Shown here one piece after another: positions 1-17,431 of a stretch of 17,649 bases of DNA; within the stretch, counting starts at the first letter, position 1, and each line of letters opens with the position of its first letter. The notes under the pieces were generated by a model, which had not been told where the DNA came from, searched no databases, and was given only the letters and a program-made list of their open reading frames with translations. The position numbers were made by a program, and so were the translations under genes. Source of the DNA: a virus. The stretch is taken from the IMG/VR virus record IMGVR_UViG_3300045988_168222, positions 1 through 17,649 of that record; one strand, written 5' to 3'.

Positions 1-149
1 TAATTCAATATTGGTATAACGTTTTTTTTTTTTCGCCTCACCCCCCCTCCTTAGCACTTCTCTCACTTGAGTGCCAAGCACACCAAATAAAATGTAACCA
101 CTTTCTGAAAACATTTTCAACTTGACTTATTACAACTAATATGTATCAC
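1..149. repeat. Left inverted terminal repeat (perfect part); imperfect homology with the right end continues to about nt 290
   Basis: nt 1-149 are the exact reverse complement of nt 17501-17649. The repeat contains T12 and C7 homopolymer runs at 22-33 and 41-47. Homology at about 90% identity continues through the promoter, RBS and ATGAAT of the first ORF. Confidence 0.9.
106..119. promoter_or_regulatory. Palindromic operator-like site TGAAAA-CA-TTTTCA, immediately 5' of a TTGACT hexamer (122-127)
   Basis: 6-bp inverted arms TGAAAA/TTTTCA with a 2-bp spacer. The same 14-mer recurs at 205-218, 17432-17445 and 17531-17544. Confidence 0.5.
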
Positions 150-151
150 TA

Positions 152-169
152 ATGAAAACAAGCTTTCAT
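152..169. promoter_or_regulatory. Second palindrome ATGAAA-acaagc-TTTCAT (same half-site, 6-bp spacer)
   Basis: Perfect 6-bp inverted arms. It is conserved in the right ITR at 17481-17498. Confidence 0.4.
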
Positions 170-204
170 AGCACAAATAAATAAATATGAATGTAAGTGT
201 TTTC

Positions 205-218
205 TGAAAACATTTTCA
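205..218. promoter_or_regulatory. Operator-like palindrome TGAAAACATTTTCA abutting the -35 of the left early promoter
   Basis: Same 14-mer as 106-119. It lies 3 bp upstream of TTGACT at 221-226. Confidence 0.5.
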
Positions 219-220
219 TG

Positions 221-249
221 TTGACTATGTTCCATACTCTTGCTATAAT
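221..249 (+). promoter_or_regulatory. Left early promoter, consensus sigma-A type: TTGACT-17 bp-TATAAT
   Basis: TTGACT at 221-226, a 17-bp spacer, then TATAAT at 244-249. It lies about 40 nt upstream of the first ORF at 288. Confidence 0.75.
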
Positions 250-287
250 ATAAATGTAAATAATAAATAAAGAAAGTTGGTAACAAC

Positions 288-521
288 ATGAATTATTACA
301 ATATTGAATTATTAGACACTAAAGACCATGTATTTTTTAGTACTGTTTCATTAGCACCCAACATTACAGATGCAATGGAAAAAGCAAAGTTAAAAGCATA
401 CAATCAAATTGATAAACACAAAATTGTTATCCGTTATGTAACGGTTAAAGATAATGAACAAGAATTTACATACAGTATGCTTACAAAAAGATTATACAAG
501 TTGTATAAGGAGAAAAAATAA
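288..521 (+). CDS. Hypothetical early protein (77 aa)
   Basis: First ORF downstream of the left promoter. Its leader and ATGAAT start are shared with the right-end first ORF. Its stop overlaps the next start (TAATG). Confidence 0.5.
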   Translation: MNYYNIELLDTKDHVFFSTVSLAPNITDAMEKAKLKAYNQIDKHKIVIRYVTVKDNEQEFTYSMLTKRLYKLYKEKK

Positions 522-727
522 TGTCAGACAAAGAAATACTTAAAACAATCCAAAACGATATTAAAAATATTGACAAATGTATTGATATGTGTGATAATTA
601 TGAAGCAGTTGACTACCTCATATCTATTCAAAAAAATCTTAGAGAACAAGAAATTAAAATAGTAAAACAAATGGCTATTAAAAAATCCCTAAAGGAAAAC
701 AAAAATGAACAAACAAAAATTAATTAA
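521..727 (+). CDS. Hypothetical early protein (68 aa)
   Basis: Good RBS (AAGGAGAAAAAATAATG). It is translationally coupled to the upstream ORF. Confidence 0.55.
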   Translation: MSDKEILKTIQNDIKNIDKCIDMCDNYEAVDYLISIQKNLREQEIKIVKQMAIKKSLKENKNEQTKIN

Positions 728-1040
728 TGAAATTGAAAAAGTTAAATTTAAAATACCTAATAATGAATACAAACAAGGTTATAATAATGGTCTTAATAGT
801 GCTATTCTTTGTGTATATGATATGAAAGAACCAATAATTAACAACACAAACACTCCACAACACTATCAAGGAACTATTCAACCTATTGACCTAATCAACG
901 CACAAGACTTAAATTTTAATCTTGGTAACGTTGTCAAATATGTTTGCCGTGCTGGAAAAAAACAAGGTGAAAACATTCTTTCAGACCTTGAAAAAGCAAA
1001 AGATTACATCAACTTTGAAATTGAAAGAGTAAAACAATGA
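705..1040 (+). CDS. Conserved small phage early protein resembling the DUF3310 family, with motifs HY..G.IQPIDLI and GNVVKYVCRAGKK...DLEKAKDYI
   Basis: RBS AAAGGAAAA precedes the start. The motif pattern HY..IEPID / KY..R.G.K / DL.KA..Y is recalled as typical of DUF3310 phage proteins. This rests on memory, not a search. Confidence 0.5.
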   Translation: MNKQKLINEIEKVKFKIPNNEYKQGYNNGLNSAILCVYDMKEPIINNTNTPQHYQGTIQPIDLINAQDLNFNLGNVVKYVCRAGKKQGENILSDLEKAKDYINFEIERVKQ

Positions 1041-1564
1041 ACAAACGCCAACGCAAAAAATTAGCTAAAAAGCAAGCTATTAAAACAGGTGCTTACACTC
1101 CTCGTAACACCTTCCGCTCTACTATGTCAATTAAAACAACACTATTTGACCCGAACCACCCAAAAAATGAAAAAATGATATATCTAGCTGAAAGAAATTT
1201 GAATAGGCTCGCATTCGTTATTACTAAGCCTAATATTGTTAACCTAACAAACCTAACTGAAGACGATGTTAAATATATTCAATCCCCAAAATTTACTCAA
1301 ACAATATCTAATATTCAAGAATACTTTAATTATGACCGTGCTAGATATAGAGACCCTGAGCGGGTTGACAACATTACACGTCACGTCATGACTAAATACT
1401 TTTATCAACGTGATATCGAAAGCACAAGGGCGCTTGATATTGCTATCAAACGACTAACAAAACAACTTGAAAAGATAACTAATAAATACTCAAAAGGTAA
1501 AGATAGACGAGCAACTAACAATCCTTTTGTTATTGTTTACTATAACGACTTGGAGCTAAGATAA
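1037..1564 (+). CDS. Basic 175-aa early protein. Function unknown. Candidate DNA-binding or terminal-protein-like factor.
   Basis: Lys/Arg-rich N-terminus (MNKRQRKKLAKKQAIK). The ATGA overlap with the upstream ORF gives coupling. It is the largest early ORF of unassigned function. Confidence 0.5.
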   Translation: MNKRQRKKLAKKQAIKTGAYTPRNTFRSTMSIKTTLFDPNHPKNEKMIYLAERNLNRLAFVITKPNIVNLTNLTEDDVKYIQSPKFTQTISNIQEYFNYDRARYRDPERVDNITRHVMTKYFYQRDIESTRALDIAIKRLTKQLEKITNKYSKGKDRRATNNPFVIVYYNDLELR

Positions 1565-1716
1565 TGAAATACCTAATAACATATCACACAAAACTAGACA
1601 ACGGCTACATTGATGAACGTCAAATCATTTTAAAAAATAAATATAATGCTAAAAACGTTTATAATAAAATAGCAACCGAAAAACGTACATTAAACATCGA
1701 ACTGGAGGAACTATGA
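1564..1716 (+). CDS. Hypothetical small early protein (50 aa; not in the supplied ORF track)
   Basis: Its ATG overlaps the upstream TAA (TAATG). A GGAG sits 9 nt upstream. Its stop overlaps the next ATG (ATGA at 1713). It fills an otherwise non-coding gap in a tightly packed coupled operon. Confidence 0.4.
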   Translation: MKYLITYHTKLDNGYIDERQIILKNKYNAKNVYNKIATEKRTLNIELEEL

Positions 1717-1898
1717 TTACATTTTATAAACTTACAAGCGTGCTTACTGGTGAAGATTACTATTTTAAACCTGAAACCATTGACTATTATAAGTATACAG
1801 ATACAAGCGTAATGATTATTGCTAAAAATATGCGACTTGAAGTATCAAAATCAGACTTTACAAACATGCTTATTCTAGAAGGGATTGACGAATATTGA
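1713..1898 (+). CDS. Hypothetical early protein (61 aa)
   Basis: RBS GGAGGAA lies 5 nt upstream, with ATGA coupling. Confidence 0.5.
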   Translation: MITFYKLTSVLTGEDYYFKPETIDYYKYTDTSVMIIAKNMRLEVSKSDFTNMLILEGIDEY

Positions 1899-2173
1899 CA
1901 ACAACTAACACAACTTACCGTGTATCAATCAATTACAAAGATAAAATTATCTTACTATCAAAACCTTTAGAAACTTGTGACTATTTTAAAGATAAAACGT
2001 CATTCATTGACGGTACTTATACTATTTTTAATAGACTCGTTGAAATTCACAAAGACCCTACCCAATACCGTGAAAGCCACTACATAAAAAGCTATAAAAT
2101 GGCTAAAATACTATATAACAATTTTAAAAAAACTAAAAAAGATTATTTTTTTTACAACACAATTGAAAATTAG
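1895..2173 (+). CDS. Hypothetical early protein (92 aa), probable TTG start
   Basis: The ORF begins with TTG overlapping the upstream TGA (TTGA). GAAGGGA lies about 10 nt upstream. There is no in-frame ATG nearby. Confidence 0.4.
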   Translation: MTTTNTTYRVSINYKDKIILLSKPLETCDYFKDKTSFIDGTYTIFNRLVEIHKDPTQYRESHYIKSYKMAKILYNNFKKTKKDYFFYNTIEN

Positions 2174-2174
2174 C

Positions 2175-2203
2175 TTGACTTTTAACAAAAACTATTATAT
2201 AAT
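2175..2203 (+). promoter_or_regulatory. Consensus promoter TTGACT-17-TATAAT driving the SSB-like gene
   Basis: TTGACT at 2175-2180, a 17-bp spacer, TATAAT at 2198-2203. The RBS GAAAGGAG follows, and the ATG is at 2233. Confidence 0.7.
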
Positions 2204-2232
2204 TAATTCATAAAACGAAAGGAGCCAAACAC

Positions 2233-2547
2233 ATGGCATTACAATTTAACACAATCGGTTTTATCAACTTTAACAAAGAGTATAATAAAGTACTCAAATC
2301 AGGTGCGATCACAGTATCATTTACATCATCACAAAAAAATAAAGATGGTGAATATGATAAACAATACTTCAATGGTCTAATCCCTGCTAAGCTAGCACAA
2401 CACGTGAAACCATTCTTAAACAAAGAGCTTGTTAAAATTTCTGGCATTGCTTATCCTGCTCAAAAAGGATACATCAACTTTACAATTTTGGAAGTGGAGC
2501 AATATAAAAAAGAAACAAAAACAGATGAAATTAATTTACCATTTTAA
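2233..2547 (+). CDS. Putative single-stranded DNA-binding protein (OB-fold-like, 104 aa)
   Basis: It has its own consensus promoter and a strong terminator, which suggests high expression. It sits immediately upstream of the packaging ATPase and polymerase, as the SSB does in 44AHJD/P68-type genomes. The sequence has SSB-like beta-strand patterning. The assignment is by position and pattern only. Confidence 0.4.
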   Translation: MALQFNTIGFINFNKEYNKVLKSGAITVSFTSSQKNKDGEYDKQYFNGLIPAKLAQHVKPFLNKELVKISGIAYPAQKGYINFTILEVEQYKKETKTDEINLPF

Positions 2548-2559
2548 TAATTAAATGTT

Positions 2560-2585
2560 GGTAGGGAGCACACCCTACCTTTTTA
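2560..2585 (+). terminator. Rho-independent terminator: GGTAGGG-agcaca-CCCTACC followed by TTTTT
   Basis: A perfect 7-bp GC-rich stem followed by a T-run, directly after the SSB-like gene. Readthrough is probably needed for the downstream ATPase and polymerase, because no promoter is seen in 2586-2603. Confidence 0.7.
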
Positions 2586-2603
2586 AATTAGAAAGGAAAC
2601 ACA

Positions 2604-3851
2604 ATGGCAAAAAAGAAAACTTTACCAAAAATACTTAAACAAAAGGCAGTCTCTCTTTTTGCAACTGAAAAAGAAGAATATGCTTACTATTTAAAAGAAT
2701 ATAAAGAAAAATACTTACCCGAAGAATTTAACCAACTTGAATTATTAGACGAGCTTTGTAACGATGACCTTGACCATTACATGAGTATCACGTCTCGTGG
2801 TGACGGTAAATCATTTAACTATATTTCTGCTGTTGGTTATCTTTGCTATCAACTTAATATGGGGTGTACTCTCTTAGTACGTCATTTTACTTTACAAGAT
2901 AAAATGCGTGAACTTGTGGAGGATATTCTACAAACCATTGGCTGGTGCAATTTCTCTACTGACTATCATTATAGGTCTACCTCGGATTATTTAATTATTT
3001 CAATCGGTGACAAAGATGTCTTTTTAATTACTGATATCAATAACGCAAGTGACTTAAAACAGTCTTCAGCAGTACTTAAAAACTTTCCAATTATGTTATA
3101 TGATGAATTTCTAACTCTTCCAGACGATTACTGTAAAAACGAATATGAAAAGATTAGAACTATCTATAAATCAATCGACCGTATTAAGAACCGCCCTTAT
3201 ATCAAAACCCCTAAAATGATATATCTTGCTAACCCAGTAAACTTTGATAGCCCGCTACTTCCATCACTTAAAATCTATAATAAATTACAAACACAAGAAA
3301 TTAATACAATCAAGCAATATGATAACGTCTTATTAGAGTTAAGGCGTAACGACTCACGTAACGATGGAAAAAACTTGCGTGCCTTTCCTGATAATGATGA
3401 TGCGGACGTTACTGGTGAATTTCAATTTTCTAATCATAAGTTAGTGAATGAAGACGTGTATTATAACATTTACAATCACGCAAAATCGGTAAAAGTTAAA
3501 TTAGACAATAAATTAATGTTGCATATCGTTGCAAAAAATGATAATATAGTATTATCAGTTGAGCGAAGTGACAACGATGAACAGTATTGTATCAATTTAC
3601 ATGATGAAACTGAAAAAAGTCAATATTTAAATGACAAATACTATAAACAAAGTTTTATTAAAAAACATGAAAAAGGTATGTTTCTTTACAAGGATAGCTT
3701 TTCTAAAACATACATGGAACGGGATACAATGCTTATGCAATTAAATTTGTTTAAGCTTATACCATCAGCAAAACAAGTCACAACTGAAGAAACATACATT
3801 AAAATTAAGGAAAATAATTTCCTTAAAGCTCTAGCAAAAAAATATGAATAA
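2604..3851 (+). CDS. DNA encapsidation (packaging) ATPase, phi29 gp16-like
   Basis: Walker A ITSRGDGKSF (compare phi29 gp16 GARGIGKS) and Walker B IMLYDEF (compare IVFDEF). RBS GAAAGGAAA precedes the start. It is adjacent to the polymerase, as in C1/44AHJD-type phages. Confidence 0.8.
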   Translation: MAKKKTLPKILKQKAVSLFATEKEEYAYYLKEYKEKYLPEEFNQLELLDELCNDDLDHYMSITSRGDGKSFNYISAVGYLCYQLNMGCTLLVRHFTLQDKMRELVEDILQTIGWCNFSTDYHYRSTSDYLIISIGDKDVFLITDINNASDLKQSSAVLKNFPIMLYDEFLTLPDDYCKNEYEKIRTIYKSIDRIKNRPYIKTPKMIYLANPVNFDSPLLPSLKIYNKLQTQEINTIKQYDNVLLELRRNDSRNDGKNLRAFPDNDDADVTGEFQFSNHKLVNEDVYYNIYNHAKSVKVKLDNKLMLHIVAKNDNIVLSVERSDNDEQYCINLHDETEKSQYLNDKYYKQSFIKKHEKGMFLYKDSFSKTYMERDTMLMQLNLFKLIPSAKQVTTEETYIKIKENNFLKALAKKYE

Positions 3852-3869
3852 TAAAGGGGTCTTAATATC

Positions 3870-6188
3870 ATGCACAATCAAAACGAATTACTTGACTTTT
3901 TAAAAAAGTTTAAAGGTAAAAAAGTCTCGTTATACGCTGATATTGAGACTTTTACTTGCAACAAAATAGAGGGTATGGAACACCCAACAAAATATCACTC
4001 TTTTACGTATTCACTAGCTATTGCTTATTTTAATGATAATGACTTTCCAAAAGTAGCTGTTTTTAATAATTTTTATGATTTCTTTGAAAAAGTTAAAGAA
4101 AGAAAAATCAGAAAATCATTATCTTTTGATTTTGTGTTTCACAATGGTGAAAAATTTGACAACCATTTTTTTATTGAAGAGATGCAAAGTTATTATAATT
4201 TACCAGTCTACACTGAACACAATAAAAGCGCAAACAACACAGCAAATAAAAATGCTAGAAAAATGTCAACTATTGACACCGAAGAGAAAAAACATGGTCT
4301 AGTGTTAGAAAGCAGAGTGAAGTCATCAAATAACGTTAGTGTCAAAGCTTACGTTCATGGTAGACGTGTTGAATTTATTGACTCATTTAAGAAAATGAAT
4401 ACAAGTATAGCTGTTTTAGGTAAAATGCTACTTAATAACAATTTGATAAATGAAGAGTATTTAAAGACTGATTTCGATTATACTTGCTTTGATAAAGATG
4501 AAGATATTGATAGGGAAACAGTTAAAACACATATCAAACGTTGTTTTGAAAGTTTGAATGAAAAACAACTTATCTACATTCGTAATGACGTCATTATTTT
4601 GGCTTTAGGGGTAAAACACTATAAAACGTTATTTTATGGTTTTGACTTTTCAAAAATGACCTTTACTCAAAATATCAAAGAAGAATATTCGAATTATAAT
4701 AAACTTGCTGAATTTCAGTTATTAAAAACAGATGGTCGCTTTTCTCACTTAAAATTAAATGATTACCAAATTTGTGGCATGTCAGGTTTTGACTATTTCC
4801 GTTCATTCTACAAAGGCGGGTTAAATCTTTATAATGATAATTACATAGGTAAAATAATAAATAAAAACGGGTTTTCAATTGACTTAAATAGCTCTTACCC
4901 TACTGTCATGTATAAGGAGAAATTACCCACTTATTTAATAGCCCTAAACGAAAAAAGATCAATTGCAAATTATGATTATAATAACAATGATATCATGTCA
5001 TTTTTCACAATGACAATAGAAAATGCTAATAAGTATATACTTTCTAAAATAGAAAGTAAAGTTTTAAGGAACGCTATTGTAAAATACTATAATTCAAAAG
5101 ATGGGCTTGTATACTATAATACCGTACTATTAAGACTACTATCTAAAATCACTAAACATGATTTCAATTCTATCCCAGTTGAAAGCTCAGCAACTTTTAA
5201 GTGTGAATATTTTGGAGCGCGTGACGTGATAGCTCGTAACTACTTTATTAAAACGCAAGGGAAAATGAAAAATAAGCTAAATTGTGAGATTGATAACATT
5301 GACCCCCTTAACATTGAAATGACTGACGAGCCTAAACCATCTAAGTATAATTTCTCAGACGAAATGGTTCAAGGATCTAAAGTGCTTTTAAATGGTATTT
5401 ATGGGGTTCCTGCTTTACGTATTCATTTTGATATTTTCAAACGTATTGGCGATGACTTTGAAAATGTAAAAAATGGTTTTACTAACAAAGAAAGAAATAT
5501 CGTTTTCTCTGCTGGTGTAACTGCTTTTGCTTTTCATAACCTATTATCACCTCTTCAATACCTAACACCCCAAGAAATTGATAACTATTTTTGGTATGCT
5601 GATACCGATAGCTTATACATGGATAAACGTGCTCTTGATAAATTTCCAAAATACATGTTCCATAAAATGAACCTAGGGGGGTGGGATATTGAACATGAAA
5701 ATATTACAAAATTTTATGCGTTTAATCATAAAAAATATTGTTTATTTGATAACGGTATTGTTGTGCGTTGCGGTGGTGTTTCAAAATCTCTTATTAAAGA
5801 ATGGATAAAACATTCACATGATGACTTTGATTTTTTTGTAAAATGTTATTTTTCAGATGGTACCATCGTACCTGCGACACGTTCCATTAGAAACGAATAT
5901 AACACGATTTCAATTTATAACACTTGTGCCAAACTTGAAAAGGGATACCCCTACTTTGATAGATATATATTGCAAAATGAAAAAGAACTTGATAAAATAA
6001 AATCAAGAATAAGGGAAGAAATTGCTAACCAGTCATCAAATGAACTTTTATACGTTGAAACACCGTATGGCGCTATTGGAACAAACGACGTTATTCCAAA
6101 TCAGGAAATTCCAGAAAATAATAACATTCGTGAACTAATCGAAGAATATAACAAATTTAAAAGACATAACCAAAAGGACTTATTCTAA
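3870..6188 (+). CDS. Protein-primed family B DNA polymerase (772 aa)
   Basis: Exo I YADIETFT, Exo II FHNGEKFDNHFF, Exo III YIRNDVIIL, motif A DLNSSYP, motif B KVLLNGIYG, motif C YADTDSLY and the KKY motif. Long TPR-like insertions are present. RBS AAAGGGG precedes the start. Confidence 0.95.
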   Translation: MHNQNELLDFLKKFKGKKVSLYADIETFTCNKIEGMEHPTKYHSFTYSLAIAYFNDNDFPKVAVFNNFYDFFEKVKERKIRKSLSFDFVFHNGEKFDNHFFIEEMQSYYNLPVYTEHNKSANNTANKNARKMSTIDTEEKKHGLVLESRVKSSNNVSVKAYVHGRRVEFIDSFKKMNTSIAVLGKMLLNNNLINEEYLKTDFDYTCFDKDEDIDRETVKTHIKRCFESLNEKQLIYIRNDVIILALGVKHYKTLFYGFDFSKMTFTQNIKEEYSNYNKLAEFQLLKTDGRFSHLKLNDYQICGMSGFDYFRSFYKGGLNLYNDNYIGKIINKNGFSIDLNSSYPTVMYKEKLPTYLIALNEKRSIANYDYNNNDIMSFFTMTIENANKYILSKIESKVLRNAIVKYYNSKDGLVYYNTVLLRLLSKITKHDFNSIPVESSATFKCEYFGARDVIARNYFIKTQGKMKNKLNCEIDNIDPLNIEMTDEPKPSKYNFSDEMVQGSKVLLNGIYGVPALRIHFDIFKRIGDDFENVKNGFTNKERNIVFSAGVTAFAFHNLLSPLQYLTPQEIDNYFWYADTDSLYMDKRALDKFPKYMFHKMNLGGWDIEHENITKFYAFNHKKYCLFDNGIVVRCGGVSKSLIKEWIKHSHDDFDFFVKCYFSDGTIVPATRSIRNEYNTISIYNTCAKLEKGYPYFDRYILQNEKELDKIKSRIREEIANQSSNELLYVETPYGAIGTNDVIPNQEIPENNNIRELIEEYNKFKRHNQKDLF

Positions 6189-6206
6189 GAACAAGTCCTT
6201 TTTCTC
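6174..6206. terminator. Bidirectional hairpin terminator shared by the convergent polymerase and HNH genes
   Basis: Stem AAGGACT (6174-6180) pairs with AGTCCTT (6194-6200). TTTTCTCG follows on the plus strand and an A-rich stretch precedes it, giving a T-tract on the minus strand. The stems lie inside the last codons of both ORFs. Confidence 0.6.
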
Positions 6207-6536
6207 GTATAATAAATTTGTTGTAAAGTCACACCATTCCAAATTATACCAGGCGTTATTAGTCTTGTCATGGTCTAAGTGGTGAACCGTATTATAATTG
6301 TTAGGGTTAGGTATATACGTTTCTGCCACTAATCTATAGACGTAAACTGTTTTAACATATCCGTTATTACATAGATTAACCCTTTCACGGCCACCCTTAT
6401 CTTTTCTAGCTTTTAAAATTTTACCAGTTTTCTTATTTTTAACAAGTCCACCGTTTTGGATAAGATAATTAGTAAAGTATGGGTGTTCTTTCCATTCAAT
6501 AAATACAGCTTTCAAAACGCTTGACATCTTTCTCAC
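6180..6536 (-). CDS. HNH homing-type endonuclease (NUMOD4 + HNH)
   Basis: NUMOD4-like IEWKEHPYFTNYLIQNGGLVKNKKTGKILK and the HNH motif VHHLDHDKTNNAWYNLEWCDFTTN. No SD sequence precedes either candidate ATG. The ORF overlaps the PlyCB-like ORF by 41 nt and the polymerase 3' end by 9 nt. Confidence 0.85.
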   Translation of the reverse strand: MRKMSSVLKAVFIEWKEHPYFTNYLIQNGGLVKNKKTGKILKARKDKGGRERVNLCNNGYVKTVYVYRLVAETYIPNPNNYNTVHHLDHDKTNNAWYNLEWCDFTTNLLYEKKDLFLE

Positions 6537-6708
6537 TGATATTTAATTCAGGTAACCCAAACTTGTCTTTCAAAGCTAAAACCGTTTTAATGTCTGCAAT
6601 GTCTAGACGTTTACCATTTAAACACGCACGATATCCGTAATTAGTATCAAAATAAAGGCAATCGTAAGGATAGCTCTTATCTTCCATATTAAAATTAATA
6701 TCACTCAT
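6496..6708 (-). CDS. plyCB: PlyCB-like cell-wall-binding lysin subunit (70 aa)
   Basis: It aligns with recalled C1 PlyCB (72 aa): MS.IN.N.E, conserved YGYRA (the Tyr-Arg binding-groove residues) and NISe.DV. RBS AAGGAGAAG precedes the start. The start overlaps the holin stop (ATGAGTGA). Confidence 0.7.
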   Translation of the reverse strand: MSDINFNMEDKSYPYDCLYFDTNYGYRACLNGKRLDIADIKTVLALKDKFGLPELNISEKDVKRFESCIY

Positions 6709-7093
6709 CTTGTTTCTTCTCCTTAATCATTTTTAAAATTTCAGGGTCTACAGTCTTAACTGTTTCTTCCTTAACTGTTTCTTTTGTTTCAACCTGGTCA
6801 TTATCTAGCATGTTCTTAATCTTGTCAGGTACTGGTATGAATGCGCTAGCATTTTCAAGAATTGAAACAATTTCCATGATTAAATAGTAACCAACAATGT
6901 AAGAAGTCAAATCGGTTCCAAGATAAGCGCTTAAAATAATGGAAACAACAACAACACACCAGATTGAAACTTTTGCCAATGCGCCATGTTTCATTTTTTT
7001 ACTTGACACGTTCTTTTGGTCGTAAGCTTTAATAAAACCCGTAACGATATCCAAAATGTTACACGCCACTAGATACTGCATAAATGTAGTCAT
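6701..7093 (-). CDS. Holin, LL-H / phage_holin_4_1 family (130 aa, two transmembrane segments)
   Basis: N-terminal family signature NILDIVTGFIKA...VSSKKM.HG. Hydrophobic segments ALAKVSIWCVVVVSIILSAYLG and YIVGYYLIMEIVSIL. Charged C-terminal tail. RBS AGAAAGGAGG precedes the start. Confidence 0.8.
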   Translation of the reverse strand: MTTFMQYLVACNILDIVTGFIKAYDQKNVSSKKMKHGALAKVSIWCVVVVSIILSAYLGTDLTSYIVGYYLIMEIVSILENASAFIPVPDKIKNMLDNDQVETKETVKEETVKTVDPEILKMIKEKKQDE

Positions 7094-7107
7094 AAGTATA
7101 GTCCTCC

Positions 7108-7135
7108 TTTCTCATAATATTATACCATAAAAAAC
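7108..7135 (-). promoter_or_regulatory. Extended -10 promoter (TGGTATAAT) for the holin-plyCB-HNH cassette
   Basis: Minus-strand TGgTATAAT with the -10 at 7119-7124, about 20 nt upstream of the holin RBS. There is no good -35; the upstream region is T-rich. Confidence 0.5.
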
Positions 7136-7140
7136 TAAAA

Positions 7141-7166
7141 TATAAAAGACGTGTATAACACGTCTA
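7141..7166 (-). terminator. Rho-independent terminator after the PlyCA-like gene
   Basis: Minus-strand hairpin AGACGTGT-tat-ACACGTCT (plus 7147-7165), followed by CTTTTATATTTTAG on the minus strand. Confidence 0.6.
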
Positions 7167-7171
7167 TATTT

Positions 7172-8719
7172 TTAGTCCCACCAAACAACACCACTAATAG
7201 CATTCAGGAAAGCATCTCTAGGATATGTAATTCTAGCAACGTGTCTATTTGGGATAGGTGAATTAGCTAGATAAGCATTTTGTTCAATTGTTGTTACTGT
7301 TGTATCTGTGAAACTTTCAATAACACCAGTATGACCCCATGAGATTGTTTGAAGATAGGCTGTACCTCCACCGTCAATAGTCCCGCTTGGTCCTCTGTAA
7401 TTACTTGCTACGTTAAAAATCATACCTTTTTTCAAATCACTGGCAGGCATTGCTACACCTGTATAATCTTTAGTATGTGCCCCTGCCTCACCCCAATTAT
7501 AGGCATTATGGAGTTGTGATGCATACATGGTTCCTGCACCTGATAACATTTTAAATCTGTCACTATAACATGATGCACATGTGTATCCGCTCATCAATCC
7601 AGCAAAGTAACCAGACAAGGCAAAACATTGACTTTCAGCATTACCACTAGCAAAGTCCGCCCCTGGTGTACCGCTACCAATAAAGCCAGCAATGTCAGAT
7701 AGAGCTTTTGTAATTCGGTCTGATGCTGGTTTGTTTTGGTGATCTACATCTGACTGAGATGGTGAAGATCCACCCGAACCTGTCTGACCTGATGGTTTGA
7801 CGGTGTCTTTTAAGATAGATGTAATAGCGTCCTCAAGGATTTTTTTAACCTCGTCAAGTGCCTCATCAGATAAACGAACACGCCATAAATTCATATTTTT
7901 TGTTAATTTAACAACTTTATTAAACATATATTGCTCAGATGCTGTATATACATTTTGATTAAACATGTCTTTTAACGTGTCAAACATTTTATTCAAAGCT
8001 TCCAGCATTGCTTTTCGTTTTGCTGAATTATCAACTTTGTCCTCTTTTGGTTTTGTTGGGTTTTGTGGTGATGCTACACCATCGTTTCCACCACCTCCTG
8101 AAAACGGGTCAACTCCAGCATCTTTAATGGTTTTAATCATTAAATCATAAGGATTGCCAAAATATACTGCTGGAGCGCTCGATCCTTGGTGTTGTAAACA
8201 CCAATCCTCAGCAAACACCCAAGCATTTCCCGCCATAGTAGACGGCATCATTATAGATCCTATTGTTCCCTTACCAGCATTATTATAAGCGTTTTGACAA
8301 TCATTGATATTTTCCTGAGGAGGTGTGCCTCTTACTTCAGGGGCTGTCATCGCTACTGGATAACCGTTATATCCGTTGTCAATTTTACGACAATATTCAA
8401 GGTCTGAAATTAAACACTCCATACCTGTTGACCCCTGGTCAGTGGCATAGTGGTTGATCCAGTTACCAGCACCACCACCCTCAGTTACAGTGTAAAATAG
8501 GAAAAAAGCAGCCTCTCCCTGATATTCTTTAATTTTAGGGATATAAGTGCTAAGTAGATTTTGTTTATTTACACCATATGAATTGATAACAGGTCTTGCA
8601 CCAGGTTGACCCATGAACCAATCGGCAAGTGCCTCATCACTCAATCCAAAATTGTTTGAAGTTTTGTTTTTGAAAAAATTAATATATTGTTCAGTTGAAT
8701 AAGTTTTATATGATGGCAT
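7172..8719 (-). CDS. plyCA: PlyCA-like endolysin catalytic subunit: N-terminal glycosidase-like domain, helical linker and C-terminal CHAP domain (515 aa)
   Basis: The C-terminus has the CHAP signature (QCFALSGYFAG..., His in WGHTGVIES). The N-terminal 200 aa, including FGLSDEALADWFMGQPGARPVINSYGVN and TEGGGAGNWINHY, resemble the recalled PlyCA GyH domain. RBS GAAAGGAAATAAAATG precedes the start. Confidence 0.8.
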   Translation of the reverse strand: MPSYKTYSTEQYINFFKNKTSNNFGLSDEALADWFMGQPGARPVINSYGVNKQNLLSTYIPKIKEYQGEAAFFLFYTVTEGGGAGNWINHYATDQGSTGMECLISDLEYCRKIDNGYNGYPVAMTAPEVRGTPPQENINDCQNAYNNAGKGTIGSIMMPSTMAGNAWVFAEDWCLQHQGSSAPAVYFGNPYDLMIKTIKDAGVDPFSGGGGNDGVASPQNPTKPKEDKVDNSAKRKAMLEALNKMFDTLKDMFNQNVYTASEQYMFNKVVKLTKNMNLWRVRLSDEALDEVKKILEDAITSILKDTVKPSGQTGSGGSSPSQSDVDHQNKPASDRITKALSDIAGFIGSGTPGADFASGNAESQCFALSGYFAGLMSGYTCASCYSDRFKMLSGAGTMYASQLHNAYNWGEAGAHTKDYTGVAMPASDLKKGMIFNVASNYRGPSGTIDGGGTAYLQTISWGHTGVIESFTDTTVTTIEQNAYLANSPIPNRHVARITYPRDAFLNAISGVVWWD

Positions 8720-8731
8720 TTTATTTCCTTT

Positions 8732-10483
8732 CTATGCAATAACATTATTATCAGCCATATCACTACGTTTTGATAAGTCATTATAATTGTGCCACAATCT
8801 TACACCACCCTCAAAAAGTGTTTTAAGCTGGTCAAATAATTCTCGGTCAATGTCATTTATCCAGTAGTTACCCTTAAATTGTACCCAATTGGCTTTACTC
8901 ATTGAATTCACGTTATAAATTTGATTGTCGTGTGGCATTGCTTCATGACCAAAAGCACCATAATATCTGCGAAGACTGTTTAATTCTTCATAATTAATCG
9001 TTGAAACTTTCAACCAAATACCATAGTCGCCTGTTTTATCCAGTACGCTGTTAGTATAACCACCCTCACTAACTGTTGGTGGTGAGATCTTCCACTGATT
9101 CATCTGTGCCTTTTGATTGCGATAATATTCATATTCATCAGCAAACAAACCTGCTCCTTTGGCTGGTGCGCTAGCAAGTCCACCACTAAACACGTTTGAA
9201 TAAACAGAAACAGCGTTGAATAGTCTATCTTTAACAGAATTATTAGGGTTAGTCATCTCTTGAATACGTCCTGAAATTGTTTTAGAATTTTCAAGTTGAC
9301 GAGAATAAGCAGTGTTAGCTTTGTTTAAAATATAGTTATTAATCATCACGGGAACATTATCGAATGTTGTGATGCTCATTTGATTATCACGATAAAATCC
9401 GTGATTTGATTCATTTGTTTCACGTTGTCCGTATTCCAATGAATAAATGTCAATTTCATTGAAAGCACCTAAGACTGATGATGCGTATATCGTGTTACCG
9501 TCTTTGATTTTACCTGTTTCAAAGTTTAATTGATTACCACGATAGTCAGTTAGATAAATATTAATAACTTGATCACGTACCAAATAATCTTCAAAATCTT
9601 TTAATCCTAAAACCTCTTTGATTTTTGATTTTGTTAAATTAAAAGGCATTGTTAAGATATTTGAATTATTGCCACCGTCCAAAACATATAATTTTGTTCC
9701 TTTACAGTCTTGTGTGTTTAATCCTGATAAATTAAAGAACATTTTAGGAACCTTTACAATTGTTTTGAAATTTTGTGTTATCCAGGGATATGCTGATAAC
9801 GTTCTAAGCAAGCTATCAAGATCAGCACTTGATACTAGATATAGGTTAACAGCTGATGTTATTCCGTCATATGTTCCGCCTGTTGCCGTTTGCATTTTGG
9901 GCTTATCTTCAGTCCCGAATTCGCCATCTAATTCAACAGCGCTTTGAATGATATACATAAAATCATTAAATTGTACACCGTCTTTATTATTGTTTGAAAA
10001 TTGTGAGGGGTTAATAAACATCATTGTTGAAGTTGGTAAAATGTCGTTACATGTTCTCAGGTATTCCTCACGTCCTCTTAATCGTTGCAACGGTAAATGC
10101 TGTCTGATAACCTCAACATTTTGAAGATTTTCCAATACACTTCCTTGGGTGTAAGTCATAACAACATCAATAACCAAGTCAAGTTGTGTTGTTTTATCAT
10201 TCATATAAGTCGTTTTAACAATAAAAGCATAGTATGCTTTTCCGTCCCAACCATCAATAAAACGGCAATAATTAAAACCTTGTAAGCTTTCCATTTCCAT
10301 AGGAACGTTAACAGTTCCACGGTCATAACGATAATTGAAACGATTAGGAAATTCAATGGTGTTATTTCCAGTAAAATAACTATCAAACCATTTATCACGC
10401 TCACTATTTGAATTAAAATGCAAAGTATTTTGCATATCGGTGAAATTAGTGTTTTTATATAACGAAAATTGTGATAATTTCAT
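8732..10483 (-). CDS. Tail structural protein (583 aa), possibly a phi29 gp9-like tail knob or major tail protein
   Basis: Assigned by size and position only: between the fiber genes and the lysin, as in 44AHJD/P68. It has its own extended -10 promoter, and the RBS GAAAGGAGAG precedes the start. Confidence 0.4.
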   Translation of the reverse strand: MKLSQFSLYKNTNFTDMQNTLHFNSNSERDKWFDSYFTGNNTIEFPNRFNYRYDRGTVNVPMEMESLQGFNYCRFIDGWDGKAYYAFIVKTTYMNDKTTQLDLVIDVVMTYTQGSVLENLQNVEVIRQHLPLQRLRGREEYLRTCNDILPTSTMMFINPSQFSNNNKDGVQFNDFMYIIQSAVELDGEFGTEDKPKMQTATGGTYDGITSAVNLYLVSSADLDSLLRTLSAYPWITQNFKTIVKVPKMFFNLSGLNTQDCKGTKLYVLDGGNNSNILTMPFNLTKSKIKEVLGLKDFEDYLVRDQVINIYLTDYRGNQLNFETGKIKDGNTIYASSVLGAFNEIDIYSLEYGQRETNESNHGFYRDNQMSITTFDNVPVMINNYILNKANTAYSRQLENSKTISGRIQEMTNPNNSVKDRLFNAVSVYSNVFSGGLASAPAKGAGLFADEYEYYRNQKAQMNQWKISPPTVSEGGYTNSVLDKTGDYGIWLKVSTINYEELNSLRRYYGAFGHEAMPHDNQIYNVNSMSKANWVQFKGNYWINDIDRELFDQLKTLFEGGVRLWHNYNDLSKRSDMADNNVIA

Positions 10484-10497
10484 ATGCTCTCCTTTCT

Positions 10498-10533
10498 ATA
10501 GTATATTATAACACAAAAACACCCGTATTTAAA
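10498..10533 (-). promoter_or_regulatory. Promoter TTTAAA-17-TGtTATAAT, partly inside the upstream terminator
   Basis: Minus-strand -10 TATAAT (plus 10505-10510) preceded by TGT. The -35-like TTTAAA (10528-10533) lies in the loop of the 10511-10541 hairpin. Confidence 0.5.
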
Positions 10534-10541
10534 CGGGTGTT
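10511..10541 (-). terminator. Rho-independent terminator after the fiber gene
   Basis: Minus-strand hairpin AACACCCGT-ttaaat-ACGGGTGTT followed by TTTTGTGT. Confidence 0.65.
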
Positions 10542-10546
10542 ATTAT

Positions 10547-11626
10547 TTAGATGATGTCACTAAAAGTGATAACATAGTTTTGTGTTGTGTTATTTGTTGT
10601 TGATACTGTCAAAGTATACCCTGATAATGTGAATACACAACCGCTAATGCGTACCGTGTTATTATCACCGTAAGCATTCATAATGTTTGTGAATTTAGTA
10701 GTGTCCTGTGTGTTAAGTGTGAAGTTAACAGAAGGTACACCTTTTAAAATTTTAACAATGAAGTTAAATTCATCTTCAGATGTTGAAACACTTGTATTTG
10801 CTGACACACTTTTAACATGTGTTTTGAGTAAGCCAAAACCTGGAACACTATACTTTTGATTTAGCGTGTAAAGTTGACGTAAACCATTACCAGACACACC
10901 TATTGAAGTGTTGTTAGTGATTGTGTTTTGTTTTTGACTAAGTAAGGTATCGATAGCAGACTTATCAGAAACTTGCTCAATCCATTGACTCCAAATAGTA
11001 CCGTTATAATAACGCTTGTATTTCTTATAAACATTATTGTCAATTGTTGTTGCCTCTTGAAATGCTCCTGATGCATCTTTAAATGAATGAACAAAATACC
11101 AATAATCACTTGGTGCGTTCACCGCCTTCCAAGTTTTAACATTTCCATTTTCTAAATTGTTTAAGTCAAATCCGTCTGGCACTCTAGTGTATTCAATACC
11201 TAATTTTGTTGTATTTCCTGAAGTTGTTTTACTAATACCATAATTGGTTAGTAAGTTATCATGTTCCAAAACTTTTTGAGGGTTTGTGTCTACTTTTGTT
11301 GTTGCACTTGTTCCGTTTGCACCTTTTTGGAGTGTTACTGTGTTTCGTGTACTTTCAAGCGACTGCTCTTTTTGAGTATCATGTTTAGGGTGAATAGTTA
11401 CAGTGTTAGTTGTTTCGTCTTTAGTTACTGTAATTAAGTCACTATTATCTGATACAACTGTTTTTAAGTTATCAGTTAAATTATAATAACTTTCAACTTT
11501 TCCTTTTTTCGTGTGAACATATGTATTTTGACCGTCTGAAATTAAATCGTTAACGTTAGTTAGTGACTTATCAAAGCTTTCAATGTCATCAACACCTGTC
11601 ACACCACGTACAAATTTTTTTGCCAT
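10547..11626 (-). CDS. Putative tail fiber / receptor-binding protein (359 aa)
   Basis: Ser/Thr/Asn-rich and beta-rich, with a conserved-looking N-terminal anchor (MAKKFVRGVTGVDDIE). It is the last structural gene before a terminator. RBS GAAAGGAAAAAAAATATTATG precedes the start. Confidence 0.4.
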   Translation of the reverse strand: MAKKFVRGVTGVDDIESFDKSLTNVNDLISDGQNTYVHTKKGKVESYYNLTDNLKTVVSDNSDLITVTKDETTNTVTIHPKHDTQKEQSLESTRNTVTLQKGANGTSATTKVDTNPQKVLEHDNLLTNYGISKTTSGNTTKLGIEYTRVPDGFDLNNLENGNVKTWKAVNAPSDYWYFVHSFKDASGAFQEATTIDNNVYKKYKRYYNGTIWSQWIEQVSDKSAIDTLLSQKQNTITNNTSIGVSGNGLRQLYTLNQKYSVPGFGLLKTHVKSVSANTSVSTSEDEFNFIVKILKGVPSVNFTLNTQDTTKFTNIMNAYGDNNTVRISGCVFTLSGYTLTVSTTNNTTQNYVITFSDII

Positions 11627-11663
11627 AATATTTTTTTTCCTTTCTGTGTTTATTATATCATAA

Positions 11664-11795
11664 TTATTGTGATTCTGGAATATTCAAAGGGTGGTTTAAA
11701 TTTCCATTATTAAATTCATCAGAAAAATATAATTTACCCTCGTGTTCAATGATTGTAATACCGTTGTTTTCTTGTTTTACTTCTTCAAGTGTCAT
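11664..11795 (-). CDS. Hypothetical small protein (43 aa; not in the supplied ORF track)
   Basis: Strong RBS AAGAAAGGAGCTTATATG. It fills the gap between the 429-aa and 359-aa tail genes. The product is hydrophilic. Confidence 0.4.
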   Translation of the reverse strand: MTLEEVKQENNGITIIEHEGKLYFSDEFNNGNLNHPLNIPESQ

Positions 11796-11813
11796 ATAAG
11801 CTCCTTTCTTATG

Positions 11814-13103
11814 CTATGCGATTGTTTGTACAGGGTCACAATTTGCTAAGTCTTCAGGGTCTCCGTTTGCTTTGTATTTAGGTAAATACTCTTTACCGTT
11901 GTCATCAAGCCAAGTGATAACTGTGTAAACCTCTTCAGTGACTGGTTTAACAATGTCGCCAGGTGTTGGAATTGATTTCAAACTTTTAGACCAAACAGAA
12001 AACACTCCATCAGTACCATAATCCAAACGTAATACCCAAGGATACATTAGATGGTTTGTAGGGTCGTGAAAATAATTTTGATAGTATCGGAAAGCGTATC
12101 TATTAATCTGTGCTCTAAGATTGTTTGAAATTTTTCCGCCATAATTTCCTTGAATTTCAGTTTTTGTGAAGTCCCCCAACTTAGACCAGTCAGCAGGATT
12201 AATGGTTGCACCGTTTGTTGTAAGCCCACTAAAGTCAAAACCAATACGTTCAATACGTGTAATACGTCCATTTATTCGTTGTGTAAATGAATTGTATAGA
12301 CAATCAAATCGGTCTTTACCGTTAACAATGTTTGTTGTTTTTACATTGGTGTGGCTGTAACCAGTAGTTGAAACAGCCCCAACAAGTGTGCTTGCCATTG
12401 TAGCAATATTTTTCACGTTTAGTGTTTCTGCTTCCAGAACCTTTACTTTTTGATTCCATGTATCAATTTCAGCTGAAATACCATCAATAGCATCTAAACG
12501 TTTTTGGATATTTGCAATGATAAGCATCAAACCTGAGTCAGCTTGTTCATAGTCTTTGCGGTTAGCTTCAATAATCTTGCGTAATTCTTCAAGCTGTTCT
12601 TTAGTAGCCCAGCCACCCCCGTCAAGTAAGTCAACACGAGTCTTTAAAGAGTTAAAGTCATTTAAGTGACTGTTGAATGAATTTTGTAACGTTTTAAAGT
12701 TTGTTTCAAGAGCAGTGACACGGTTTTTTAAGTCATCAATGTTTGCTGTTTCAACGAATAAGCCGTCCGAGTTAGCAACTAACTTGTTACCAGTAGCTTT
12801 TGAAATTTTAACGTTAGCTTTCAAAACAATGTCATTTACACCCTCAACCAGCCACGATGTTTTTTTGATTAATTCAATTGTTTGCGTGTCTTCAGTGTTA
12901 ACGTCTCTCTTTGCTAATTCGTTTACAAAATCAACAATAGACTTAATAAGTTCATTAAAATTTGATAGATAATCGTAATATGATGGTGCGTTAGTATTGT
13001 AGTCACGTCTATCATCATACCACGGTTGCCAGTGACCCTCAAGTGATAATGGTAGGTGAGGTGCGTTATATGGTTTATTTTCATCAAAGTTAATATTTTC
13101 CAT
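11814..13103 (-). CDS. Tail appendage / fiber protein with a central coiled-coil (429 aa)
   Basis: A long heptad-like region (LKNRVTALETNFKTLQNSFNSHLNDFNSLKTRVDLL...) followed by a Gly/Thr-rich C-terminal domain. RBS AAGAAAGGAAAACAATG precedes the start. Confidence 0.4.
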   Translation of the reverse strand: MENINFDENKPYNAPHLPLSLEGHWQPWYDDRRDYNTNAPSYYDYLSNFNELIKSIVDFVNELAKRDVNTEDTQTIELIKKTSWLVEGVNDIVLKANVKISKATGNKLVANSDGLFVETANIDDLKNRVTALETNFKTLQNSFNSHLNDFNSLKTRVDLLDGGGWATKEQLEELRKIIEANRKDYEQADSGLMLIIANIQKRLDAIDGISAEIDTWNQKVKVLEAETLNVKNIATMASTLVGAVSTTGYSHTNVKTTNIVNGKDRFDCLYNSFTQRINGRITRIERIGFDFSGLTTNGATINPADWSKLGDFTKTEIQGNYGGKISNNLRAQINRYAFRYYQNYFHDPTNHLMYPWVLRLDYGTDGVFSVWSKSLKSIPTPGDIVKPVTEEVYTVITWLDDNGKEYLPKYKANGDPEDLANCDPVQTIA

Positions 13104-13120
13104 TTGTTTTCCTTTCTTAA

Positions 13121-13780
13121 TTATAAAATTTGTGAGAATAAAATTTTATCTAAGTCGTTAAATAGGTCATTATGAAACGTATATAGTTCTCTCATTCGCC
13201 CAACTTCATAAGTTTCTTGTTTGCTAAAATCGATACTATCAACGTCTGATGTATTAGTTGCCCTAGATTTTGAATGCGCTGTAGTGTCTGCGTAGTCATA
13301 GGTTTCTTTGTCCAGTGATAAATCAGTATTATCTTGTGGTAAGGTAACCGCTAGATTATTATCACGGGTTACCGTTGAACCTGTTGAAGTTGATGCTGAA
13401 TTACCATAAGTATATACTTTATTATTTAAGTATTTCTTACCATTGATATAATAATCATTTATAACGTCTTTAATCCCACGAATAAAGCTAGCTAAGCGCC
13501 AGTTAAATGTTTCATATGTTTGAAATTTAATAGTACGTGTTAAGAATTTGGCTAAAAATTCACTTTCAAATTCATCTCGGACTTGCTCGTCTAAAAAATC
13601 AAGACCATAGAAAATTGTATTTCTGCAAACTGATTTTACTTCATTATCATACTGTAACACTTTGTGCGTGAATTGTAGTTCAGGATTATAGTATATAATT
13701 TCATTACCCCTTAAGAAGTCGCTATAAACATTATTATAGGTTGTGTAAATAACATCGTATAAACGTGTCGTTGTCTTCAT
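13121..13780 (-). CDS. Putative lower collar / tail tube protein (219 aa)
   Basis: Assigned by position directly downstream of the connector gene, with TAATG coupling, as the lower collar is in phi29-like and 44AHJD-like genomes. Confidence 0.35.
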   Translation of the reverse strand: MKTTTRLYDVIYTTYNNVYSDFLRGNEIIYYNPELQFTHKVLQYDNEVKSVCRNTIFYGLDFLDEQVRDEFESEFLAKFLTRTIKFQTYETFNWRLASFIRGIKDVINDYYINGKKYLNNKVYTYGNSASTSTGSTVTRDNNLAVTLPQDNTDLSLDKETYDYADTTAHSKSRATNTSDVDSIDFSKQETYEVGRMRELYTFHNDLFNDLDKILFSQIL

Positions 13781-14742
13781 TAAATACCCCCGTCTAAAAT
13801 TTGTACTTTTTCAAGGCTTGAAAGTTCGCTAGCTATTTCATCTCTAAAGCTTGCTTTTAATTCTGTTTTGAATTTATCATTGTAATGTTTTAGCTTTTCA
13901 TTTCTAGCTTGTAAATAAATACCAGCGTTAGCTTTTTGGTATGCTTTGTTGCTTTCAGCCTCGGACTGTGAAACACCGCTTTCTTTGTCAACGGCTAGGG
14001 AAGTAAGACCCAAAATGTTATTAAGTTCAGCAATATTATTTTGGTATTCTCGTTTTAGCTCAGGTAAAGCACTGATGATACCTTGACCCTCGTTGATGCT
14101 TAAAATGCTTTCATCAGGGTCAAAGAATTTTGTTGTTTTAATATATGGAGCGCCATTATATAAATCTTGTGTGATTTGCTCTACGTCCTCATCATTTGAC
14201 TCCCCTCTGATAACAGTAGAGATTTTAGCTTGCATATAAATGCTAAATCTTGACATGGCAATCTCTGCAATACGTTCGCTATATGTTTCAATAATATTGA
14301 AGTCGTTAGTTAGTTGGATTGGTTTGTTCCATAATACAATAAAATTACCTGTTTCATAGCCGTCATGGTAAGTGATTTCTTTATAAAATTTTTCTTTAAT
14401 TTTATTTGATATAAAGAAATTAATATCGTTACCTGTAAGTGGTCTTGTGCCATAAGTTTGAATATTTGATAGGGTGTTAGATTGGTTTACTGTTCCTAAA
14501 ATCATTGTACCCTTTTTAGTTTGTCCAATTGCAACACCGTAACCCTGTCTAAGCCATACTTCAAGTTGAATTGGGTCAATCAAAACATTTTTATCGTTTA
14601 AACCCTCGTATGAAATTACCGATGGTAGAAATTCGATATAACGATTTTTAAAGAATTTGAAAAAGTTATTTCTTTGTGAGATAACTCTCATTTTGACTTT
14701 TTCGGATAAGGTTTGCTCGATATTTGAATAAAAGTGACTCAT
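13780..14742 (-). CDS. Putative head-tail connector (portal / upper collar), phi29 gp10-like (320 aa)
   Basis: Size and position match (phi29 gp10 is 309 aa, immediately after the capsid gene). The C-terminal part is acidic. RBS AAGAAAGGAG precedes the start. Confidence 0.5.
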   Translation of the reverse strand: MSHFYSNIEQTLSEKVKMRVISQRNNFFKFFKNRYIEFLPSVISYEGLNDKNVLIDPIQLEVWLRQGYGVAIGQTKKGTMILGTVNQSNTLSNIQTYGTRPLTGNDINFFISNKIKEKFYKEITYHDGYETGNFIVLWNKPIQLTNDFNIIETYSERIAEIAMSRFSIYMQAKISTVIRGESNDEDVEQITQDLYNGAPYIKTTKFFDPDESILSINEGQGIISALPELKREYQNNIAELNNILGLTSLAVDKESGVSQSEAESNKAYQKANAGIYLQARNEKLKHYNDKFKTELKASFRDEIASELSSLEKVQILDGGI

Positions 14743-14754
14743 GTTACTCCTTTC

Positions 14755-14787
14755 TTAAATAAAATAAAAGCATGGGCGAACCCATGC
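14755..14787 (-). terminator. Rho-independent terminator after the major capsid gene
   Basis: Minus-strand hairpin GCATGGG-ttcg-CCCATGC followed by TTTTATTTTATTT. No promoter follows, so the connector gene is reached by readthrough. Confidence 0.7.
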
Positions 14788-14794
14788 ATTTTGG

Positions 14795-16104: not shown

Positions 16105-16126
16105 TTTTATTTTTCCTTTCTTTATT

Positions 16127-16420: not shown

Positions 16421-16439
16421 TTTTTATTTTTCCTTTCTG

Positions 16440-16622: not shown

Positions 16623-16728
16623 TTTTAAAAACTCCTTTCTAAAAACATAAAATGTAGCACAATATAATTAATCATACTATCATGTGTTACTTAATTATGT
16701 TTTAATATTGTACTAATTTTATAATCTA

Positions 16729-17429: not shown

Positions 17430-17431
17430 CA

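Follow-up and report, generated by a model that had tools for sequence, protein, structure and literature searches.

How is a lysin made of two separately encoded subunits laid out in the genome of a phage, and why are its genes placed where they are? These questions are raised by a 17,649-bp stretch of viral DNA (IMG/VR record IMGVR_UViG_3300045988_168222, positions 1 to 17,649; hereafter the window), which encodes homologs of both PlyC subunits, the catalytic PlyCA and the wall-binding PlyCB. PlyC, the textbook multimeric lysin and the most potent of the known phage lysins, has so far been regarded as a singular case, peculiar to phage C1. The window is the complete linear genome of a C1-like (Rountreeviridae) streptococcal podophage and is bounded by inverted terminal repeats of 293 bp. 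Among deposited genomes it is closest to those of the Streptococcus equinus podophages vB_SbRt-pBovineB21 and pBovineS21 (ON759209, ON759210), with a nucleotide identity of ~82-83% across 55-63% of its length; further related loci, mostly metagenomic, are given below by L numbers where they need to be told apart.

On the minus strand, in the order of transcription, the window contains plyCA, a hairpin with a T-run, an extended -10 element, a holin gene, plyCB and a gene for an HNH endonuclease (Table 1). A first-pass annotation, made from the sequence alone, had placed the four open reading frames, and all are where it put them, with lengths of 515, 130, 70 and 118 aa. We consider it quite probable that they amount to a PlyC-type two-component lysin encoded in two adjacent minus-strand transcription units, divided between plyCA and the holin gene.

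Two subunits and the junction between their genes

The 515-aa protein was predicted to combine a PlyCA-like N-terminus with a C-terminal CHAP domain, and both parts are recovered. Its residues 5-513 align with the PlyCA of structure 4F88 (phmmer, E=3.8e-83); Pfam recognizes PlyCA_N (PF21480, E=1.7e-43) and CHAP (E=8.8e-6, 26.6 bits against a cutoff of 26); and Foldseek matches its AlphaFold model to 4F88 (E=9.6e-23). The alignment retains the catalytic residues, E80, C365 and H463 in the window corresponding to C1 E78, C333 and H420, whose catalytic roles have been described (PMC4607406). Identity to C1 PlyCA varies by domain, at 53% in the GyH domain, 34% in CHAP and 26% in the docking region between them, which aligns to C1 residues 227-288.

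The resemblance of the 70-aa protein to PlyCB, also suggested in the first-pass annotation, is seen in shared YGYRA and NIS..DV motifs, in a phmmer match of residues 1-65 to the PlyCB of structure 4F87 (E=1.6e-6) and in a PlyCB-like predicted fold. The AlphaFold2 model, built from 44 homologs, has a predicted local distance difference test score of 70.6, and its top 17 Foldseek matches in the Protein Data Bank (PDB) are all PlyCB chains, with template modeling scores of 0.66-0.78 and a root-mean-square deviation of ~2.2 A over 58 residues. At the N-terminus, MSDINFNM in the window aligns with MSKINVNV in C1, keeping at the sequence level the pattern MS.IN.N.E, and F6 and N7 are invariant across the 44 homologs; residues 1-8 of C1 PlyCB form the beta-sheet platform on which PlyCA docks (PMC10604209). 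The PlyCB clade of the window has three conserved or nearly invariant cysteines (C17, C29, C68) that C1 PlyCB lacks. Judged by sequence comparison, the identification of the 515-aa and 70-aa proteins as true PlyCA and PlyCB homologs is solid.

The terminator and the internal extended -10 promoter that the first-pass annotation had read between plyCA and the holin gene remain predicted elements, and comparison with related loci backs both. Downstream of the plyCA stop codon, a consensus scan finds a GC-containing hairpin (8 bp, 4 GC pairs, loop of 3) with a U-tract directly after it (tail TTTATATTTT). Next comes the candidate holin promoter, composed of a -35 TTTATA (7146..7141), a 16-nt spacer and the extended -10 TGGTATAAT (7127..7119). 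We compared 15 loci in which plyCA and the holin gene are co-oriented: the window, pBovineS21 and pBovineB21, which were aligned, and 12 more that were inspected. A hairpin and T-run lie between the plyCA stop and the -10 in every one of them, with free energies of about -9 to -12 kcal/mol (-9.2 kcal/mol in the window), and at least four classes of stem, unrelated in sequence, can be told apart (AGACGTGT, AGCACCTTT, GGCTAGCT and AGACCTCTTT, with variants).

The promoter is as widely kept. TGnTATAAT stands 31-42 nt ahead of the holin ATG in 18 of the 18 loci that have a holin upstream region, including C1, where the promoter is a perfect TTGACA-17-TGCTATAAT, and including L008 and L009, in which plyCA is divergent from the holin gene. 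The latter two lack the hairpin and have a back-to-back pair of extended -10 elements pointing outwards; because plyCA is on the other strand, the holin gene there must have a promoter of its own. Within the window, the motif TGNTATAAT is enriched (9 observed against 2.04 +/- 1.48 expected; none of 200 shuffles reaches 9), and five of the nine copies are intergenic, just upstream of same-strand genes (241, 7119, 10505, 11652, 17401). Terminator-like matches are modestly above chance (13 against 6.5 +/- 3.0), and the intergenic RNA between plyCA and holin folds better than its shuffles (z=-3.2). Taken together, the comparative evidence strongly backs the predicted terminator-promoter junction between the two genes.

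A junction of the same design precedes the tail-knob gene, where a stop codon, hairpin, T-run, TGTTATAAT, ribosome-binding site and ATG follow one another at 10541..10505. The proposal that plyCA is the last gene of a long late transcript does not hold in the face of this second junction: because it precedes the knob gene, the predicted unit contains only the knob gene and plyCA, the knob stop lying 12 nt ahead of the plyCA start. More generally, the late strand seems to be built of short units bounded by hairpin, T-run and -10 junctions.

In the arrangement we propose, the first unit would be transcribed from the extended -10 at 10505, across the tail-knob gene and then plyCA, as far as the hairpin with its U-tract at 7165..7147. 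The second would start a few bases beyond that end, at TGGTATAAT, and run through holin, plyCB and the optional HNH gene to a hairpin shared with the convergent polymerase gene. [quoted passage not shown] PlyCA would then dock on the PlyCB ring, an octamer in C1, to give the endolysin, by analogy with that phage. PlyC assembles when its two genes are carried on separate plasmids (PMC10604209), so separate transcripts are compatible with its assembly.

Several points weigh against this arrangement. That the hairpins terminate and the -10 elements initiate transcription is predicted from sequence only. The -35 TTTATA is poor, with 4 of 6 matches to TTGACA, and generic promoter-like matches in the window are at chance (96 against 86.8 +/- 10.2); the 8-bp hairpin is short and its U-tract interrupted, and read-through could be substantial. 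On the protein side, the match of the 70-aa protein to the Pfam family C1_PlyCB, at 28.4 bits, is under the curated cutoff of 30.5. The docking domain of PlyCA, at its 26% identity to that of C1, is modeled by AlphaFold with low confidence as a helix, four strands and a helix, not as a helical bundle. Of the four wall-binding residues of C1 PlyCB that are mutated in deposited structures (Y28, R29, K59, R66), two are not conserved: the Y and R of YGYRA are kept, and C1 K59 and R66 both align to E in the window. The substitution R66E abolishes wall binding by C1 PlyCB (bioRxiv 2021 paper). With K59 and R66 replaced, the ligand on the wall may be another than in C1; the alignment suggests such a difference and does not demonstrate a loss of binding.

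Gene order and possible reasons for the split

The locus was put forward as a second gene arrangement for PlyC, a claim that stands in part. The C1 order, holin-plyCB-lil-plyCA on a single strand, was stated correctly and the order in the window differs from it; the latter is not new. Both ON759210 and ON759209 are annotated with HNH (lil), PlyCB, holin and PlyCA in the order and orientation of the window, and their description (Sci Rep 2023, PMC10241823) reports these four genes as "inversely inserted", with holin and lil having traded sides of plyCB in comparison with C1. The order recurs in about a dozen genomes from metagenomes. The plyCA/holin/plyCB/HNH layout is the standard one, already published, in the clade infecting the S. 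bovis/equinus complex. The two pBovine phages and the window share the -10 element, the ribosome-binding site and the junction design, as well as PlyCB (91% identical) and holin (84-86% identical); the sequence of the terminator stem differs.

The window has the pBovine-type organization, with plyCA, holin, plyCB and HNH on the late strand, convergent with the polymerase gene, and lacks that of C1, in which the polymerase strand carries the four genes as a single unit with plyCA last. Here plyCA is upstream, behind the knob gene, and is cut off from the rest by the terminator-promoter junction. Common to the two genomes are plyCA and plyCB as two separate genes, the holin/plyCB overlap, the HNH gene after plyCB and an extended -10 promoter ahead of the holin. 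The description of the locus as rearranged was therefore too strong: read in the direction of transcription, the holin-plyCB-HNH block is as in C1, only plyCA lies on its other side, and C1 has a holin promoter too. The sole real difference is that plyCA remains with the tail-knob gene, where C1 has it at the end of the lysis operon. Inverting the cassette as a whole would put plyCA beside the polymerase gene, so a simple inversion between C1 and the window can be rejected; the blocks were inverted separately.

Metagenomic relatives show further variants: the window order without HNH (L007, L016), holin-plyCB on one strand with plyCA and the knob gene on the other (L008), and the knob gene alone inverted (L017). 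The holin-plyCB(-HNH) block is constant in transcription order throughout, C1 included, and plyCA is the moving part. Some relatives have the knob and plyCA units turned around one by one, as though each were an invertible cassette, and between divergent neighbors (L008 3590-3665, L017 2990-3075) back-to-back extended -10 elements occur, e.g. ATTATACCA...TGTTATAAT.

Why should plyCA keep company with the knob gene? One answer, which we hold tentatively though it is the best placed of the explanations considered, is that plyCA is, or descends from, a phi29-like virion tail-tip lysin, hence its transcription with the tail-knob gene, and that plyCB is what remains of a lost conventional endolysin, its orphaned wall-binding domain. 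PlyCA would go into the tail and its surplus be caught by PlyCB rings for lysis from within; the window order would be the older one and the C1 operon derived. The PlyCA model matches, over its full length, the Andhra tail tip 8EJ5_A (Foldseek, E=2.1e-13, 550 columns), and it also matches the P68 lysin 6O43. Andhra gp10, a component of the virion, forms a dimer of GyH-linker-CHAP build, and its linker is inserted into the knob (PMC9710869). Like the window PlyCA, it and P68 gp11 (functionally phi29 gp13) consist of GyH, a helical/sheet linker and CHAP and are encoded near the knob and holin genes. Unlike the window, however, Andhra, P68 and phi29 encode a conventional endolysin as well and no PlyCB, and placement of the window or C1 PlyCA in the virion is putative.

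Synteny points the same way. In the window, in phage SG005 (L018, LC628082), in L021 and in L022, the gene right after that of the knob is plyCA-like; in C1 the knob gene and plyCA are adjacent and convergent. The order in the window mirrors that of phi29, gp13 tail lysozyme, gp14 holin and gp15 endolysin, and for this reason may be the older layout. SG005 has, as in the window, a holin of the same family and a PlyCA homolog (36% identical, full length). Unlike in the window, its PlyCB-like module is not free-standing and is fused to a GH25 muramidase: the post-holin gene (4963-5853, minus strand) encodes a 296-aa GH25 endolysin in which aa ~228-272 are PlyCB-like (hhalign probability 93.8%, E=1.7e-7; Pfam match). 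The SG005 authors class the PlyCA homolog as tail-associated, and their paper apparently does not mention the PlyCB-like C-terminal module (PMC8537203). The middle domain of this homolog, in a phage with no free PlyCB, is 25% identical to that of C1, compared with 26% for the window. The docking segment is paired in relatives with Phage_lysozyme2, Amidase_5 or CHAP, and more distant PlyCA_N proteins, found at lower query coverage, carry Peptidase_M23, as does phi29 gp13 (docking segment and PlyCB partner were not checked in these). A screen of the larger open reading frames of the window, which did not take in all small ones, turned up no further peptidoglycan hydrolase.

On the other side, the accessible literature, which does not extend to the C1 structure paper, holds no virion proteomics or tail-tip structure of a C1-like phage; C1 plyCA is on the early-strand lysis operon, apart from tail transcription; and synteny alone is no proof of virion incorporation. 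The comparisons of structure and gene order suggest that plyCA may retain the place of an ancestral tail lysin, and that the slot behind the holin, otherwise that of the endolysin, is taken by plyCB. The fullest version, in which PlyCA is virion tail-tip lysin and endolysin catalytic subunit at once, PlyCB is an orphaned domain that captures free PlyCA via the former knob-plug linker, and the window layout is ancestral, is one we advance with a little more reserve still. Descent from a tail lysin fits the data at least as well as an explanation from subunit dosage.

The dosage explanation is that of the first-pass annotation: the split would set the amount or timing of the subunits, with the extra promoter raising holin-plyCB transcripts over plyCA in keeping with a 1:8 holoenzyme. 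It is plausible, speculative and, in our judgment, rather doubtful. The plyCA/holin junction looks real, plyCB has a good, conserved AAGGAG site and is coupled to the holin, and the plyCA ribosome-binding site, AAAGGAAA, is weaker than that of plyCB; a leaky terminator would moreover give the second unit two promoters. Yet C1 obtains its 8:1 ratio from a single operon carrying the same holin promoter, so the split is not needed for that ratio, and since the same junction design recurs upstream of the knob gene, the junction appears general to the gene units of this genome and not specific to the lysin.

Unlikely, finally, is that the hairpin is no effective terminator but serves RNA stability or processing, or is a scar of recombination, with plyCA through HNH mainly on one transcript: the short stem, the interrupted U-tract and a breakpoint in pBovine nucleotide homology that falls exactly in the T-run (7134), making this site a recombination boundary as well, would suit it, but unrelated stems of one geometry, each with its T-run, recur throughout the co-oriented loci, the hairpin is missing where plyCA and holin diverge, and the intergenic RNA is more stable than shuffled sequence.

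Catalytic domains around a conserved docking segment

Nucleotide homology between the window and the pBovine phages breaks at 7134, 7842, 7972 and 8717 (blastn), and the only stretch of plyCA that aligns to the pBovine 'plyCA' is the core of the docking/linker domain. The two proteins align accordingly over aa 231-336 only, at 50% identity (BLASTP). Both catalytic domains of plyCA (7135-7841, 7973-8716) are non-homologous to those of the closest phages, and the docking core between them and plyCB are conserved. The pBovine 'PlyCA' has the ~100-aa docking segment in common with the window and differs in its N-terminal domain and in a C-terminal Phage_lysozyme2; by sequence it gave no match to PlyCA in the PDB. 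Its N-terminal domain is CHAP-like by motif only, the profile comparison with CHAP reaching E=0.047 over 25 columns.

A word-indexed homolog search with an 85-aa docking fragment returned no candidates. An exhaustive search with it returned seven proteins, with three full-length representatives of 50%-identity clusters that differ in architecture: PlyCA_N-dock-CHAP; a divergent 'type B' N-terminus (E=0.0016 against the GyH profile)-dock-CHAP; and a CHAP-like N-terminus-dock-Phage_lysozyme2. A search with the full-length protein contributes PlyCA_N-dock-Amidase_5 as well, NlpC/P60 being present or not, and in L021 such an Amidase_5-type plyCA is found beside a holin and a 70-aa PlyCB. Proteins of the Amidase_5 and Peptidase_M23 types are nearly all on 15-18 kb contigs. 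The docking segment is associated in this way with at least four catalytic layouts: GyH-CHAP, divergent GyH-CHAP, CHAP-like-lysozyme2 and GyH-Amidase_5 (loci compared for these layouts: L001 6794-8221, L004 2126-3547, L021 4001-5452).

PlyCB is 86-97% identical across most clade loci that differ in catalytic architecture, and 71% in L007. The lysin genes of L010 and L012, from IMG/VR and other metagenomic contigs, are near-identical to those of the window, with PlyCA 96-98% identical; an exact-sequence look-up of the 515-aa protein matched no record. In all we count 86 PlyCB clusters and 197 PlyCA-related proteins in the PlyC family.

Neighboring genes and what the family means

The holin is 40% identical to that of C1. 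The HNH protein, 49% identical to C1 lil, is read from a GTG start; an ATG three codons in would give the pBovine-like overlap, and the gene overlaps the 3' end of plyCB by 32-41 nt. It is optional, missing at this site in L007, L008, L016 and L017, and such presence or absence at one site among relatives is consistent with a mobile homing endonuclease. A strong-looking promoter inside it, ATGACA-17-TGGTATAAT at 6271..6243 on the minus strand, was rejected: TGGTATAAT there spells the codons W-Y-N of a conserved AWYNLEW motif, and the stretch is probably a coding by-product.

Elsewhere in the window, the tail-knob protein is 87% identical to the pBovine tail protein. The region ~10672-12921, coding for late proteins of 359 and 429 aa, is almost without nucleotide homology to the pBovine phages and has homologous flanks; the two proteins are likely appendage or receptor-binding proteins, and the region is probably a swapped host-range module. 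An early 111-aa open reading frame (705-1040, plus strand) matches PHROGs phage nucleotide-kinase families (E=1.6e-26). Each terminal repeat carries an inward-facing near-consensus promoter, TTGACT-17-TGCTATAAT, at 221-249 on the plus strand and 17429-17401 on the minus strand.

Table 1. Coordinates of the lysin locus and associated features in the window
Feature	Position	Strand	Evidence or remark
Inverted terminal repeats	1-293 and 17357-17649		97% complementary
14-bp hairpin between convergent DNA polymerase and HNH genes	6172..6202		likely two-way terminator
HNH homing-endonuclease gene (lil-like), 118 aa	6180..6536	-	Pfam NUMOD4, HNH_3
plyCB, 70 aa	6496..6708	-	phmmer, AlphaFold2/Foldseek
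Holin stop/plyCB start overlap ATGAGTGA	6701-6708	-	
Holin gene, 130 aa	6701..7093	-	Pfam Phage_holin_4_1, E=5.2e-23
Holin ribosome-binding site AAGGAGG	7103..7109	-	sequence reading
Predicted sigma-A promoter of holin-plyCB-HNH unit	7119..7146	-	scan and motif enrichment
Hairpin AGACGUGU-UAU-ACACGUCU then UUUAUAUUUU, predicted intrinsic terminator of knob-plyCA unit	7147..7165	-	
plyCA, 515 aa	7172..8719	-	phmmer, Pfam, Foldseek
plyCA CHAP domain, ~aa 328-515	7175-7738	-	
plyCA linker/docking domain, ~aa 233-301	7817-8023	-	
Core of docking/linker domain, sole plyCA stretch with nucleotide homology (82-87%) to pBovine 'plyCA'	7842..7972	-	blastn
plyCA GyH domain, ~aa 1-211	8087-8719	-	
Tail-knob gene, 583 aa, phi29 gp9-like	8732..10483	-	Pfam Caud_tail_N, E=2e-20
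Extended -10 TGTTATAAT, predicted promoter of knob-plyCA unit	10505..10513	-	
Hairpin with T-run (terminator-like), end of upstream late unit	10518..10541	-	9 bp, 5 GC pairs, tail TTTGTGTTAT

The gene order of this locus is already in the literature; of more interest is what the comparison shows, a PlyCB and a docking segment that are conserved and catalytic domains that are interchangeable. The window genome and its metagenomic relatives reveal a sizeable PlyC family in which these two parts are nearly constant and at least four catalytic layouts occur. For the engineering of PlyC-like enzymes it offers a ready set of natural parts, to be directed at the bovis/equinus streptococci, which are agents of rumen acidosis, endocarditis and infections associated with the colon. 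The transcription map that follows from the conserved terminator-promoter junction is concrete and testable. The tail-tip-lysin synteny and the SG005 fusion provide a testable account of the origin of a two-gene lysin, by a plausible evolutionary route from a tail-tip lysin and a conventional endolysin to the two-gene PlyC. On the fullest version of the tail-lysin reading, the conserved docking segment would let phages swap CHAP, Amidase_5 and lysozyme-type domains without losing either partner.

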